Virus record (IMG/VR): IMGVR_UViG_3300028394_000035
From: a virus
Strand: one strand, 5' to 3'
Length of the DNA: 64,000 bases
The notes beneath the pieces are model-generated. The model worked only from the letters and a program-made list of their open reading frames with translations, ran no database searches and was not told the origin of the DNA. Positions 3,414 to 26,300 of this stretch are shown here, one piece after another; within the stretch, counting starts at the first letter, position 1; the number at the start of each line of letters is the position of its first letter. The position numbers were made by a program, and so were the translations under genes.

Positions 3414-3550
3414 TATGTGTGTCTGCTATTGATGTAATTAGAAATGATTAATTAATGTTATTAAAAACATATGTGTTATATTTTGCTATTATAGTATAAT
3501 GTCTGTTATTATGAAGTATTATAAGTTCTTATTGTCTTCTAAGGCTGTTA

Positions 3551-3579
3551 ATTATAACACACCACAGTTTATTTGTCAA
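3551..3579 (-). promoter_or_regulatory. Consensus sigma70 promoter, leftward (TTGACA-17-TATAAT, extended -10)
   Basis: tgtcaa at 3574-3579 and attata at 3551-3556 on the + strand. Confidence 0.7.
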
Positions 3580-3623
3580 GTGTTTCCAAGGGATTATAAG
3601 ATTTCCGACACATTCTGAGACAC

Positions 3624-3653
3624 TTGACAACCCCCGACTTCGTGTGTTATAAT
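3624..3653 (+). promoter_or_regulatory. Consensus sigma70 promoter, rightward (TTGACA-18-TATAAT, extended -10 TG)
   Basis: TTGACA 3624-3629, TATAAT 3648-3653. Confidence 0.7.
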
Positions 3654-3709
3654 GACTTCGTGGACTGAGATAATAACTTCGTGTATCTGTGAGTATGATA
3701 CTACTTCGT

Positions 3710-4024
3710 CCTGTGGAAAACTACTTTTCCACAGGTTGTTCGTGGTAGTATAGAGTATAAGAACTGTTCGTTGTAATAGTTTTCCACAGGTTTAGAAGTA
3801 GTTGTAGTATTTGCAAGGGTTTATAAGATTTACCCTGTGGAAAACTCTCATAAACCTGTGGAAAACTCTTCGTTTACCTGTGGAAAACTACACAAACCTG
3901 TGGAAAACCTCATAAGATTGTGGAATACCTGTGGAAAACTCTTCGTTTACCTGTGGAAAACCTTTATCGTCCTGTGGAAAACCTTTATCGTCCTGTGGAA
4001 AACCTTTATCGTCCTGTGGAAAAC
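3710..4024. repeat. Array of 12 TTTTCCACA nonamers plus 1 variant (cyanobacterial DnaA-box consensus); putative origin or DnaA-binding locus
   Basis: Boxes start at 3712, 3725, 3780, 3836, 3857, 3879, 3899, 3919 (variant), 3930, 3952, 3973, 3994 and 4015; includes a perfect 21-bp tandem x3 (3950-4012). The repeat is certain; its function is inferred. Confidence 0.9.
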
Positions 4025-4416
4025 TCTCAGTTCTTCTAATTATGATACCCCCGGTACAGTTATTTTACATACCCTGGGTATAGTTTATATTAATATCAAT
4101 CAATTTAGTATAATAACCAATATTTTGTAGTTCGTGTATATTATTATACAGCACTATTTGACAGTTATATTCAACGTTGTTTGTTTGTTATTATAAACCG
4201 ATGCCTAAAGTAAAAACGCATAACTACCCTAACCTACAACGGACCAAAAACGAGAGAGTGATTACGAGTCCGTTTCAAATCGCATAAGTGTTTCCCCTCT
4301 TTTATAAAAAATTTCGGAGGAAAAAAATACACAAAAAAGGTTTCTCACATAATATCGCACAAATCAAAGTATCATAATGCCTATATAATTTTTGAAGACC
4401 CAAAACAAAAAAAAAG

Positions 4417-4569
4417 ATGAAATTAGAATTTGACGAATTTGAAAAAGATTTACTAATTGATACAATTCAACATAGGTTGGATACAGATAAGGTATTGGTA
4501 ATTAACAATTCACTAAAAGAAGAACTCACAGAATTACTTCGAAAAGTCGAAGAAGATGAATACTTATAA
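4417..4569 (+). CDS. 50-aa hypothetical protein (not in ORF track)
   Basis: MKLEFDEFEKDLLIDTIQHRLDTDKVLVINNSLKEELTELLRKVEEDEYL. Confidence 0.6.
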   Translation: MKLEFDEFEKDLLIDTIQHRLDTDKVLVINNSLKEELTELLRKVEEDEYL

Positions 4570-4726
4570 TATTGAGGTAAAAGGAATTTCTATATTAAGC
4601 CAAATCCCTCAGAATGATTTACAGAAGAATCTGAAACTTATCAGAGGACTTGTATGGACTTCTGGGGGGAATGACAAGGACATTGAAGTTACACTAAATA
4701 AAACAAATCCACCTTGCAAAATTTGA
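4556..4726 (+). CDS. 56-aa hypothetical protein (not in ORF track)
   Basis: MNTYNIEVKGISILSQIPQNDLQKNLKLIRGLVWTSGGNDKDIEVTLNKTNPPCKI; short overlap with the previous ORF. Confidence 0.55.
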   Translation: MNTYNIEVKGISILSQIPQNDLQKNLKLIRGLVWTSGGNDKDIEVTLNKTNPPCKI

Positions 4727-4766: not shown

Positions 4767-5519
4767 ATGGCAAAAGGATTTACAGTTAAAGCAAAGGCAC
4801 CATTAAGTACATCATCAACAGATGATTTTAATTTACAGGCAACTAAAGAATTAATTAAAGGAAAGTCGGTTGTATTTTGTCTTCCAGGTCGTGGAGTATC
4901 ATATACATATTTAAAGAATTTTGTTCAGTTATGTTTTGATCTTGTGCAGAATGGTGCAAGCATTCAAATATCACAGGATTATTCTTCCATGGTAAACTTT
5001 GCACGTTGCAAATGTTTAGGTGCAAATGTTCTCAGGGGACCAAAACAAATACCTTGGGATGGAAAACTTCAATATGATTATCAACTTTGGATTGATAGTG
5101 ATATCGTATTTGATACAGAAAAGTTTTATCGTCTTGTAGCAATGGATAAAGACATCGCAGCAGGGTGGTATATGACTGAAGATGGTCATACTACCTCAGT
5201 TGCTCATTGGTTAGAAGAAGACGATTTTAGGGGCAATGGAGGAGTCATGAATCATGAAACTGGAGATACAATGAGTAAAAGGCGCAAACCATTTACAGTC
5301 GATTATACAGGATTTGGTTGGGTACTGATTAAAAAAGGAGTATTTGAAAAACTTGAATATCCTTGGTTTGCTCCTAAAATGCAAGTCTTTGAATCTGGAG
5401 AAGTGCAAGATATGTGCGGAGAAGATGTTTCTTTCTGTCTCGATGCAAAAGAAGCAGGTTATGAGATTTGGTGTGATCCACAGATTCGTGTCGGACATGA
5501 AAAGATGAGAGTTATCTGA
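4767..5519 (+). CDS. Glycosyltransferase-like protein (GT-A fold), conserved in cyanomyoviruses
   Basis: LWIDSDIVF (DxD motif), TGFGWVLIK, GEDVSFC and RVGHEK motifs. Confidence 0.7.
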   Translation: MAKGFTVKAKAPLSTSSTDDFNLQATKELIKGKSVVFCLPGRGVSYTYLKNFVQLCFDLVQNGASIQISQDYSSMVNFARCKCLGANVLRGPKQIPWDGKLQYDYQLWIDSDIVFDTEKFYRLVAMDKDIAAGWYMTEDGHTTSVAHWLEEDDFRGNGGVMNHETGDTMSKRRKPFTVDYTGFGWVLIKKGVFEKLEYPWFAPKMQVFESGEVQDMCGEDVSFCLDAKEAGYEIWCDPQIRVGHEKMRVI

Positions 5520-23310: not shown

Positions 23311-26300
23311 ATGCCCCAAAAAACTAATTTAAACGTATCTCCGTATTTTGATGATTTTGAAGAATCAAAAAATTATCAAAAAGTTTTATTTAAACCGGGT
23401 TCCCCAGTTCAGGCAAGAGAATTAACAACATTACAAACAATACTTCAAAATCAAATAGAAAAATTCGGAAATCATTTCTTCAAAGAAGGAGCAATGGTAA
23501 TTCCTGGCCAAATTGCTTATGATTCAGAATATGCCTGTGTTCAAATTGATGAAACGCATTTGGGACTTCCTATTTCTTTATATCTAGAAAATCTTGTAGG
23601 AAAATTAATTCAAGGAGAAATTAGTGGGGTAAAGGCAAAAATTGAAAATTATGTATCAAATAATGATACAAATATAACATACAATACTTTATACATAAAA
23701 TACCAAAGTTCAAGTGATACTAATTTTTCAACTGCAACTTTTGTTGATGGAGAAAATTTAATAGCATTAGAGGATATTACATATTCTTTATCGACAATTA
23801 GGAATGGTACATCTTTTGCTACAACGATTATATCAAATTCTACCGCAGTAGGTTCTGCCGCAAAAATTGCAGAAGGAATATATTTTATTAGAGGTTTTTT
23901 CCTAAAAATAAATTCAGAAACAGTTATACTAGATTATTATACAAATAAACCATCTTATAGAGTTGGTTTATTGATTGATGAAGATATCGTCGTCGCATCA
24001 GACGAATATAAAGATCTATTTGATAATGCTCAAGGGTTTTCGAATTATGCAGCTCCTGGTGCAGATAGATTAAAAATATCTACTTCATTGATTAAAAAAT
24101 CAATTGATGAATTTAATGATGAAAATTTCATTGAACTTCTTAGACTAGAAAATGGAATTTTACAAAAATTTGTAAAAACGACAAATTATAATTTAATTAG
24201 AGATGAACTTGCAAGAAGAACATATGACGAATCTGGAGACTATTATGTAAAACCATTTGATATTGTGGAAAAGGAATGCTTAAATGATCAAATTGGAAAT
24301 AATGGAATATATTTAAAAAATCAAAAAACAAGTCAAGGAAATACAGTCTCTGACAATTTGCTGTGTCTATCAGTTGGTCCCGGAAAGGCATATGTAAGGG
24401 GATATGAAGTAGAAACAATTAATAATACAATAATTGATGTAGAAAAACCAAGATCTACTTCTAATGATTACAATCAAGCAATACCTTTTAATTTAGGAAG
24501 GCAAATTATTGTTAATAACGTTTCGGGATCAGTTCCCGTTGGTTTTGGAGTGTCGTCACTAGTAAATTTACACCAAGGAAGAACAGTATCTGTAGGTATT
24601 GCATCTGATTTAAAAATAGGTGTTGCAAGAATATATGATTTAAAATTAAAAAATGCCGAATATACAAATGCAGCAACACAATATGAAATATCTTTATATG
24701 ATGTTCAAACTTATACAATTTTAAATTTAAATGCAACCATATCTCAAACAGTTCCTGCACATATTCGAGGAAAAAATAGTGGAGCGACAGGATATCTTGT
24801 TGGCACTGTATCTTCTTCAAAAGAACTAACATTATATCAAGTTTCTGGTTCTTTTGCAAAAGATGAGCAAATTGAAATTAACGGAATAGATAATGGCCGA
24901 ACAATTACTTCGTCTCGTGATTTTAATTTTTCAGATGTTCATCAAATAGTCGGTAATGGAGTAACATTTACAGCAGATCCACTACTTTCTAATTCGATTC
25001 TTTTGTCTCCTTCAGGATCACAATTTACAATTTCTGTTGCATCTGGAGGAATAAGTTCAGTAACAAATTCAAATTCAAATTTTTATGTTGGAATCAATAC
25101 TGGAGATGTAGTTTCATACACCAAACAAGGTGAAATTGTACCAACATATAATAAAGTACACAGAATAAGCACCACTGCAAAGGTAATTGAATTAAAATCA
25201 TTTCCTTCTGTTTCTGGTATTTGTAGTGGAAGTTTGCCATCTTCAACAATAACTACAAATGATTTTAAAAAAGTTACTCTAGAAATTTTAAATAATATAA
25301 AAAATATTGGTCTTTATACAAAATTAAATAAATCAAATATATCAAATTTAGATTTAATTGGATCTGATGTAGTGATTAGAAAAAGTTATAATGTAACAAT
25401 TAGTGGTAATGGATTATCACAATTACTAGAAAGTGACCCAAATTTAACTCTTGAACCATTTGACGAAGAAGATTACAATTTAGCATTTAGTAATGGAGTA
25501 ATAGAATCACTAACTGACCAAAAACTTGTTCCTAGTGGAAGAACTGTAACATTACAGAATATTAGCCAAAACGGAAATGCAGTTTTGACTACTACATTTA
25601 AAAAAATAAACGTAAAAACAAAGAAAAAAACACATAATAGATGTTCTTCTATAATTGTCAATAAATCATCACTTCAAGGATCTGGAATTGGATCAACCGC
25701 ATTGAATGATGGATTAATATATGGTCAAATATACGGAACAAGAGTGCAGGATAAAGAAATTTCATTAAATATTTCAGATGTATCCGAAATTGTTGGAATT
25801 ATTGAATCTTCGACTACTGGCGACCCATCACTACCATTTATTCAGTTAACAAATTTATCTTCAAATATTTTAAATTCCGTAAAGGGAGAATTAATTATTG
25901 GACAAATAAGTGGTGCAGTTGCTGTTTTAATTTCTTCAAATGGAACAAATCAAGTAGATATTGTTTATCAAAATGAAAATATATTTGCCACAAACGAATC
26001 TATAAGTTTCCAAGAATCTAATATACAAGCAAATGTATTGTTTGCATTTCCCGGAGATAAAAATATTAAAAATAATTATATTTTTGATTCTGGACAAAGG
26101 TCAGATTATCTGGATTTTTCTAAAATCATTAGAAAACCACAATTTTCAGGTCCGATAAAAAAAATTAAAATCATTTATAATCATTTTACAATAAATTCTT
26201 CTGATACCGGAGATTTTGTTGGAGTAAATTCTTACGACAAAGACATATACGGAAAACTAAAGTCGGTCGATGGTATCAGACTTTCTGATATAATTGATTG

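Follow-up and report, generated by a model that had tools for sequence, protein, structure and literature searches.

A gap between the genes of a T4-like cyanomyovirus carries a phased array of DnaA boxes, at which the virus, judging from sequence comparisons, very probably docks the host initiator DnaA. The array lies in a stretch of viral DNA of 64,000 nucleotides (64 kb), referred to here as the window. We propose that it would serve as a high-affinity landing pad for DnaA, an optional module that appears to have been added to a control cassette which is free of genes and conserved among T4-like cyanophages. The cassette consists of two host-type promoters placed back to back, of which one is directed against the genes into an AT-rich tract. 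Bound along a single side of the helix, DnaA would most likely modulate the phage's own early events at this cassette, through transcription across the array, through opening and priming, or through both. We give this main reading a probability of about 0.5.

T4-like cyanophages kill a large share of Prochlorococcus and Synechococcus in the ocean. We know of no mapping so far of their replication start sites or replication mode, and, to our knowledge, use of DnaA is not known for T4 itself. In the full-text literature searched, which covers few subscription journals, none of the papers that we found deals with DnaA boxes of cyanophages or of T4-like phages, in agreement with an earlier reading of the same DNA (the sequence-only reading), which knew of no description for T4-like cyanophages. 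A conserved array in the main non-coding control region, apparently under selection, offers a testable handle on the start of cyanophage replication. It also bears on the coupling of infection to the host cell cycle, and raises the possibility that viruses titrate DnaA.

Architecture of the box array

The array sits in a gap of about 1 kb without a credible ORF (3414–4416). All credible genes of the window lie on the plus strand, and its G+C content is 31.8%. Downstream of the gap follow the genes of a conserved 250-aa protein (4767–5519), SAM decarboxylase, gp25, gp6 and giant baseplate proteins. The window phage is a T4-like cyanomyovirus, as the sequence-only reading had claimed. The array DNA had also been described as gene-free, which holds for the whole gap. 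A mechanical ORF of 97 aa runs across the array (3837–4130). We judge it to be a non-coding artefact, because units of 20, 21, 22 and 11 nt put the same box into three reading frames.

Between 3712 and 4023, we counted 12 perfect TTTTCCACA boxes and one TATTCCACA variant (3919–3927). The whole window holds 14 perfect boxes. A count against a background model had been suggested; run on the 64 kb window, it gives 1.84 expected boxes (sd 1.41), and 14 is reached in 0 of 100 shuffles. Two isolated perfect boxes lie outside the array, at 24264 and 53651, which corresponds to the chance level. The sequence-only reading had named just the first of these.

At the left end of the array, an inverted pair of boxes forms a palindrome with 11-bp arms and a 4-nt loop (3710–3735). 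A single perfect box on the plus strand (3780–3788), located by the pattern count of TTTTCCACA, faces the co-oriented part of the array across a central spacer of 47 bp (3789–3835). Beyond the spacer, ten co-oriented boxes occupy the minus strand (3836–4023), nine of them perfect and the tenth the variant, with a period of 20–22 bp and one 11-bp step. They start at 3836, 3857, 3879, 3899, 3919, 3930, 3952, 3973, 3994 and 4015, and the start-to-start spacings are 21, 22, 20, 20, 11, 22, 21, 21 and 21 bp. Cumulatively, their phases drift by no more than about 0.1 helical turn, so that all these sites lie on one side of the helix. The recount thus returned every element of the earlier description, namely the 12 perfect boxes with the variant, the inverted pair with its 4-nt loop and the single box, and reproduced the spacing series and its placement on one DNA face. 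There are no weak sites in the array between the strong boxes 21 bp apart.

The invariant unit of the array is the 12-mer CCTGTGGAAAAC, and conservation reaches two bases past the 9-mer box. Similarity among the 8–10-nt spacers is only about 37%. With direct repeats at even spacing, a 12-nt core and a 20–22 bp period, the array has an iteron-type layout, a point taken up below.

Folded as single-stranded DNA, the palindrome at 3710–3735 reaches −11.3 / −11.6 kcal/mol, with a z-score of about −6. We considered the palindrome as a terminator and dropped this as a general role, because relatives have no T-run after it. The loop (3721–3724) reads CTAC in the window and in L353, and GTAG, the reverse complement, in L350–L352, as if the whole palindrome had been flipped.

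Four metagenome contigs of near-identical phages (left flank about 96% identical) provide two further haplotypes of the array. The three haplotypes hold 10, 10 and 9 units. Unit order and spacer bases differ among them, and 0 box bases change. Units have been gained or lost while the box and the period of 20–22 bp stay, and recent unit duplications built the array. By this comparison, selection evidently acts on the boxes.

Host DnaA as the probable binder

The motif TTTTCCACA equals the published cyanobacterial DnaA box (PMC4674748), which bears out the earlier reading of the motif as a cyanobacterial DnaA box. We compared 219 phage boxes with a chromosomal set of 72 clustered boxes from 20 cyanobacterial genomes. 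At position −1, G occurs in 0.63 of the phage boxes and in 0.54 of the chromosomal boxes. At position +1, the fractions are 0.65 and 0.67, and C and T are avoided in both sets.

The boxes could instead be an iteron array, read by a phage-encoded protein or another host protein with a binding site that only looks like a DnaA box. The 12-nt invariant core, the variable spacer of 9–10 nt and the period of 21–22 bp are a classical iteron layout, and the conserved bases extend two positions beyond the 9-mer. The 12-nt repeats of T4 oriE and the iterons of plasmids provide a precedent. It had been feared that the CC..C flank of the box marks such a phage iteron. Against this, chromosomal clusters of cyanobacteria show an equal preference for the extension, which is also found in an unrelated microvirus and in diverse bacterial genomes. 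As judged from the flanks, the phage boxes and the chromosomal boxes have a common extended consensus.

The microvirus is mar31 (L414, MZ089777.1; ssDNA, marmot faeces), in which 11 perfect head-to-tail copies of CCTGTGGAAAAC lie at 403–526 between the capsid and pilot genes, and one more box-like copy lies upstream. A second, unrelated lineage consists of HK97-like contigs of about 56% GC with genes for terminase, portal, protease and major head protein. Six of these contigs (L076, at 190–347; L065; L030; L117; L103; L114) carry 4–6 perfect TTTTCCACA boxes adjoining the large terminase gene, with six boxes in all but L114. The recurrence of the same 12-mer in a microvirus and the arrays in HK97-like contigs are more easily explained by a shared host factor than by a protein specific to the phage. 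The extended box in a gut microvirus, together with the HK97-like arrays, hints that DnaA-box arrays may be a wider phage device.

The search for a protein partner points in the same direction. A DnaA DNA-binding domain is absent from the five phage records searched and present in 5 of 5 sampled host-family genomes. A host that lacks dnaA or uses another box had been named as a finding that would refute a role of DnaA. The sampled picocyanobacteria do encode DnaA, and 4 of the 5 genomes have TTTTCCACA-like boxes upstream of dnaN; the fifth, of high GC, has none within one mismatch.

For an iteron-binding protein of the phage, there is little to choose from. The ORFs neighbouring the array contain no DNA-binding domain, and no neighbouring gene or small ORF tracks the presence of arrays. 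A whole-genome phyletic screen returned 120 candidates, a number that reflects the close kinship of the array-bearing complete genomes, by which the screen is confounded. After stricter filters, one weak protein of 86 aa was left, with marginal matches and no known domain. In the literature searched, we found no other cyanobacterial factor with this motif. We therefore consider an iteron array quite improbable, and host DnaA is probably the binder of the array.

We also compared the window ORF at 4556–4726 with the 'DNA-binding' ORF of S-SRM01, and no similarity was detected.

A conserved promoter cassette with optional boxes

To the left of the boxes, the gap contains two perfect sigma-70-type promoters, both TG-extended and matching the consensus at 12/12 positions. 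They are divergent and lie back to back. The antisense promoter (3551–3579, minus strand) is directed against all genes into an AT-rich tract (3420–3550, 78–79% AT), and is followed by 120 nt of 78% AT. The sense promoter (3624–3653, plus strand) is directed through the array towards the downstream genes. On the other side of the boxes lies the AT-rich right flank (4040–4200), in which a conserved block at about 4149–4166 is common to L127, L133 and L350.

The sequence-only reading had pointed to AT-rich tracts on both sides of the array. They are present at 76–79% AT, reaching 79% and 76% over 100 bp compared with 68% for the window. When 80-bp stretches of the window are ranked by instability, only 3443–3522 of the flanks comes among the first ten, at rank 9. 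The tract at 3420–3550 is easily melted and not unique, and the flanks are unexceptional for an AT-rich genome.

BLAST of the gap and of the relatives' arrays against named phages gave almost no matches, since short boxes with variable spacers do not seed alignments. We used pattern scans instead. A scan of viral contigs for two phased boxes returned 115 loci, and 53 of them are homologous to the window. Clusters of 3–8 boxes are present at 40 of these 53 loci, and in all 35 viral loci holding both features, the cluster lies upstream of the homologue of the 4767–5519 gene. With a maximum of 8 boxes elsewhere in the viral contig scan, the array of the window is the largest seen; most array-bearing relatives have only 2–5 boxes. 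Five larger phage records were scanned for the distribution of boxes, which are gathered in one local group apart from isolated copies or single pairs.

Named phages carry smaller sets at the same locus. We found four boxes in P-SSM7, 2+1 in S-SM2 and two in P-TIM68. ACG-2014d has two perfect and two one-mismatch boxes with an 11-bp period, and Syn9 also has two perfect and two one-mismatch boxes. Such cultured phages with small arrays (P-SSM7, ACG-2014d, Syn9, S-SM2, P-TIM68) make experiments feasible.

Across phages, the distribution of box spacings has its peak at 21 bp (47 of the 88 pairs fall in the 19–23 range), within a sample preselected for gaps of 10–14 nt, so that the peak is informative within that range only. 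A second class has a spacing of 11–12 bp. Three distinct phage sequences have a central spacer of exactly 47 bp between facing boxes, and eight others have one of 69–70 bp.

To estimate how common the array is, we used 39 close relatives picked by the 250-aa protein alone, with enough upstream DNA required. No perfect box is present in 31 of the 39, and six have three or more. The array thus cannot be an essential origin, as about 80% of close relatives do without it. The check for conservation at the same locus, proposed earlier, came out in favour of the array, in that the boxes and their 21-bp phasing are kept in relatives, though not in these 80%. Sf-FS3, P-SSM2 and S-SSM7 have no boxes at this locus, and their equivalent gaps contain no other repeated motifs.

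The rest of the cassette is more widely kept. The antisense promoter and its conserved start region are homologous in S-SM2, P-TIM68, L127, L094 and the box-less Sf-FS3, and the arrangement of promoter and AT-rich tract is likewise kept in relatives, including Sf-FS3. By this alignment of gaps, the boxes are an optional add-on to a conserved cassette of promoter and AT-rich DNA. Where the boxes lie and which way they point with respect to the antisense promoter and the AT-rich tract differs between phages, which means that there is no fixed geometry for directed unwinding.

Comparison with cyanobacterial origins

The sequence-only reading had considered the array as a mimic of the host oriC. 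The array resembles cyanobacterial oriC (PMC4674748; PMC8287927) in the 9-mer, the flank preference, the spacings of 11 and 21 bp and the facing orientations. With 12 perfect boxes, it is a cluster of host-consensus DnaA boxes, as oriC is. In five genomes from one picocyanobacterial family, however, the gap lying upstream of dnaN contains 0–1 perfect box and a few one-mismatch boxes, and the phage array thus has far more perfect boxes than these sampled origins. A CTACTAC-type run lies past two boxes and a spacer in the host gaps of L325, L326, L328 and L329, which corresponds to the published unwinding module. The whole genomes sampled from this family hold 1–37 perfect boxes, close to the reversed-pattern control.

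The unwinding module of such origins, exemplified by S. elongatus, combines tandem boxes, a short GC spacer and at least three DnaA-trios within 16 bp of a box (PMC8287927). No host-type module of this kind is present in the window. Its sole trio-like run (3798–3807) is separated from the nearest co-oriented box by about 28 nt, and relatives do not conserve it. The array is not linked to dnaN or dnaA and is flanked by phage genes. BLAST of the array against host loci gave only box-length matches and no further origin homology. In contrast to oriC, the array belongs to a lytic phage and is optional among relatives. With the module missing, only the boxes alike and about 80% of relatives without an array, the view that it is a copy or mimic of the host oriC is not supported by the sequences compared.

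The array might still be a self-sufficient origin of the oriC type, at which DnaA oligomers unwind the adjacent AT-rich element and start theta replication. Many phased boxes, facing orientations and AT-rich tracts on both sides are what such an origin would have, and Syn9 has been predicted to replicate from a single theta origin (Weigele 2007, as cited in PMC2984593). It would, however, work without the host-type unwinding module, the orientation of the boxes towards the AT-rich tract is not conserved, and less stable DNA than the flanks occurs elsewhere in the window. The 31 of 39 close relatives without a perfect box, together with Sf-FS3, P-SSM2 and S-SSM7, also speak against it. We consider a self-sufficient origin very unlikely.

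The cumulative GC skew of P-SSM7 and Syn9 is monotonic, with nearly all genes on one strand; it gives no origin signal and is uninformative here. After detrending, the extremes lie at 22/100 kb in P-SSM7 and at 45/101 kb in Syn9, and do not coincide with the locus, at 46 and 52.5 kb.

Possible titration of DnaA or modulation of the cassette

If DnaA binds the array, its effect could fall on the host or on the phage itself. As a DnaA sink, the array would be multiplied with the phage genome, soak up host DnaA and block re-initiation in the host, with no replication or transcription role of its own. Each phage genome would bring 12 perfect boxes, against 1–37 per host-family genome and 0–1 per origin gap, so that its count is of the order found on an entire host chromosome. 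The sites are strong, lie 21 bp apart on one face, and have neither weak sites between them nor an unwinding module. This is the largest array seen and was made by recent unit duplications, as expected if more sites are better, and it is optional among relatives, as expected of an accessory host-takeover device.

E. coli datA and the DnaA-box clusters of B. subtilis are loci of DnaA titration. The phage array is similar to them in having boxes of the high-affinity type away from the origin, which could hold many DnaA molecules. It differs from them in being virus-borne, amplified with the viral genome and always placed in a promoter-rich cassette. A pure sink could lie anywhere, and yet the clusters are always found in the same control cassette beside promoters. 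The 2–5 boxes of most array-bearing relatives would make weak sinks, and the palindromic pairs and the fixed spacers of 47 or 69–70 bp between facing boxes suggest a structured complex. Plain titration is, in our estimate, unlikely.

Modulation of the cassette, the reading that we prefer, would place the action of DnaA at the promoters beside the boxes. Docked DnaA could gate the transcription that runs from the sense promoter across the array, and could also assist in opening or priming the antisense promoter and its AT-rich element, an anatomy of the R-loop type seen at T4 oriF and oriG. On a displaced single strand, the palindromic pair could moreover fold so that a DnaA box is exposed in the stem of a hairpin. 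Several findings weigh on the other side. Strong sites 21 bp apart and recent duplications fit plain titration at least as well, and the missing unwinding module, the lack of a fixed geometry, the unexceptional flanks and the absence of a GC-skew signal count against modulation.

In T4, oriF and oriG consist of a promoter and a downstream unwinding element at which replication starts from an R-loop, and oriE contains evenly spaced 12-nt repeats (PMC3016281). DnaA is nowhere mentioned in this review of T4 replication (Kreuzer and Brister 2010, PMC3016281). The phage families are related, and the antisense promoter followed by an AT-rich tract has the anatomy of oriF and oriG, a likeness that concerns anatomy only. 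On the other hand, cyanomyoviruses lack motA and asiA (PMC2984593). The promoter of the cassette is of the sigma-70 type and not MotA-dependent, and the repeats are putative host DnaA boxes.

For the hairpin, the A-site of the ABC primosome offers a parallel (Masai et al. 1990, 1995, as described in PMC6127211). On single-stranded DNA, the palindrome at 3710–3735 would fold into a hairpin of 11 bp whose stem carries a DnaA box, a structure like that of the A-site. This likeness is purely structural, and strand displacement and helicase loading by cyanobacterial DnaA are conjectural here.

DnaA boxes occur in the origins of phages and plasmids such as P1 oriR, lambda and pSC101. These elements rely on the host replisome and have an initiator of their own, with separate iterons. 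Here, too, a mobile element carries consensus DnaA boxes beside what would be its own initiation signals. The T4-like phage differs from them in bringing its own replisome, and we found no initiator gene.

A broader possibility is that T4-like cyanophages enlist DnaA at a defined control or origin region. There, DnaA would either help an R-loop origin by way of an A-site-like hairpin, or be held by a self-amplifying sponge that stops host initiation. We regard this as possible rather than probable, and put it forward tentatively. Either, if true, would be the first case in which a T4-like lytic phage uses DnaA. Phage development would then be tied to the replication state of the host, which is light-dependent in cyanobacteria.

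Further elements of the gap

Rfam and tRNA scans of the region gave no credible match. A run of TTCGT / ACTTCGT motifs extends over 3639–3771 on the plus strand, each copy a few bases past a −10-like hexamer. The motif is 11-fold enriched in the gap, with further copies at 3869 and 3942, and is found as well in the gaps of L127, L169, L091 and L060. These motifs may be tandem promoter starts or a second binding site.

A 26-nt block is present twice, at 88% identity. One copy (3579–3604) abuts the antisense promoter. The other (3806–3831) is a conserved block within the central spacer between the facing boxes, and is kept in the relatives L091, L060 and L104. This second copy could be a factor-dependent promoter reading into the array.

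The 250-aa protein encoded at 4767–5519 belongs to phrog_1574, has a weak glycosyltransferase-like match and falls in no Pfam family. It is 75–91% identical across cyanomyoviruses in which gp6 is only about 50% identical, and its gene is always the first sizeable one past the gap.

The block TAACTACCCTAACCTACA at 4222–4240 is kept with small changes in Sf-FS3, S-SM2, P-TIM68, P-SSM7, L127 and L350, always shortly before the first small ORFs that follow the gap. Over the surrounding 59 nt, identity to Sf-FS3 is 88%. This block could be a leader, an operator or a small RNA.
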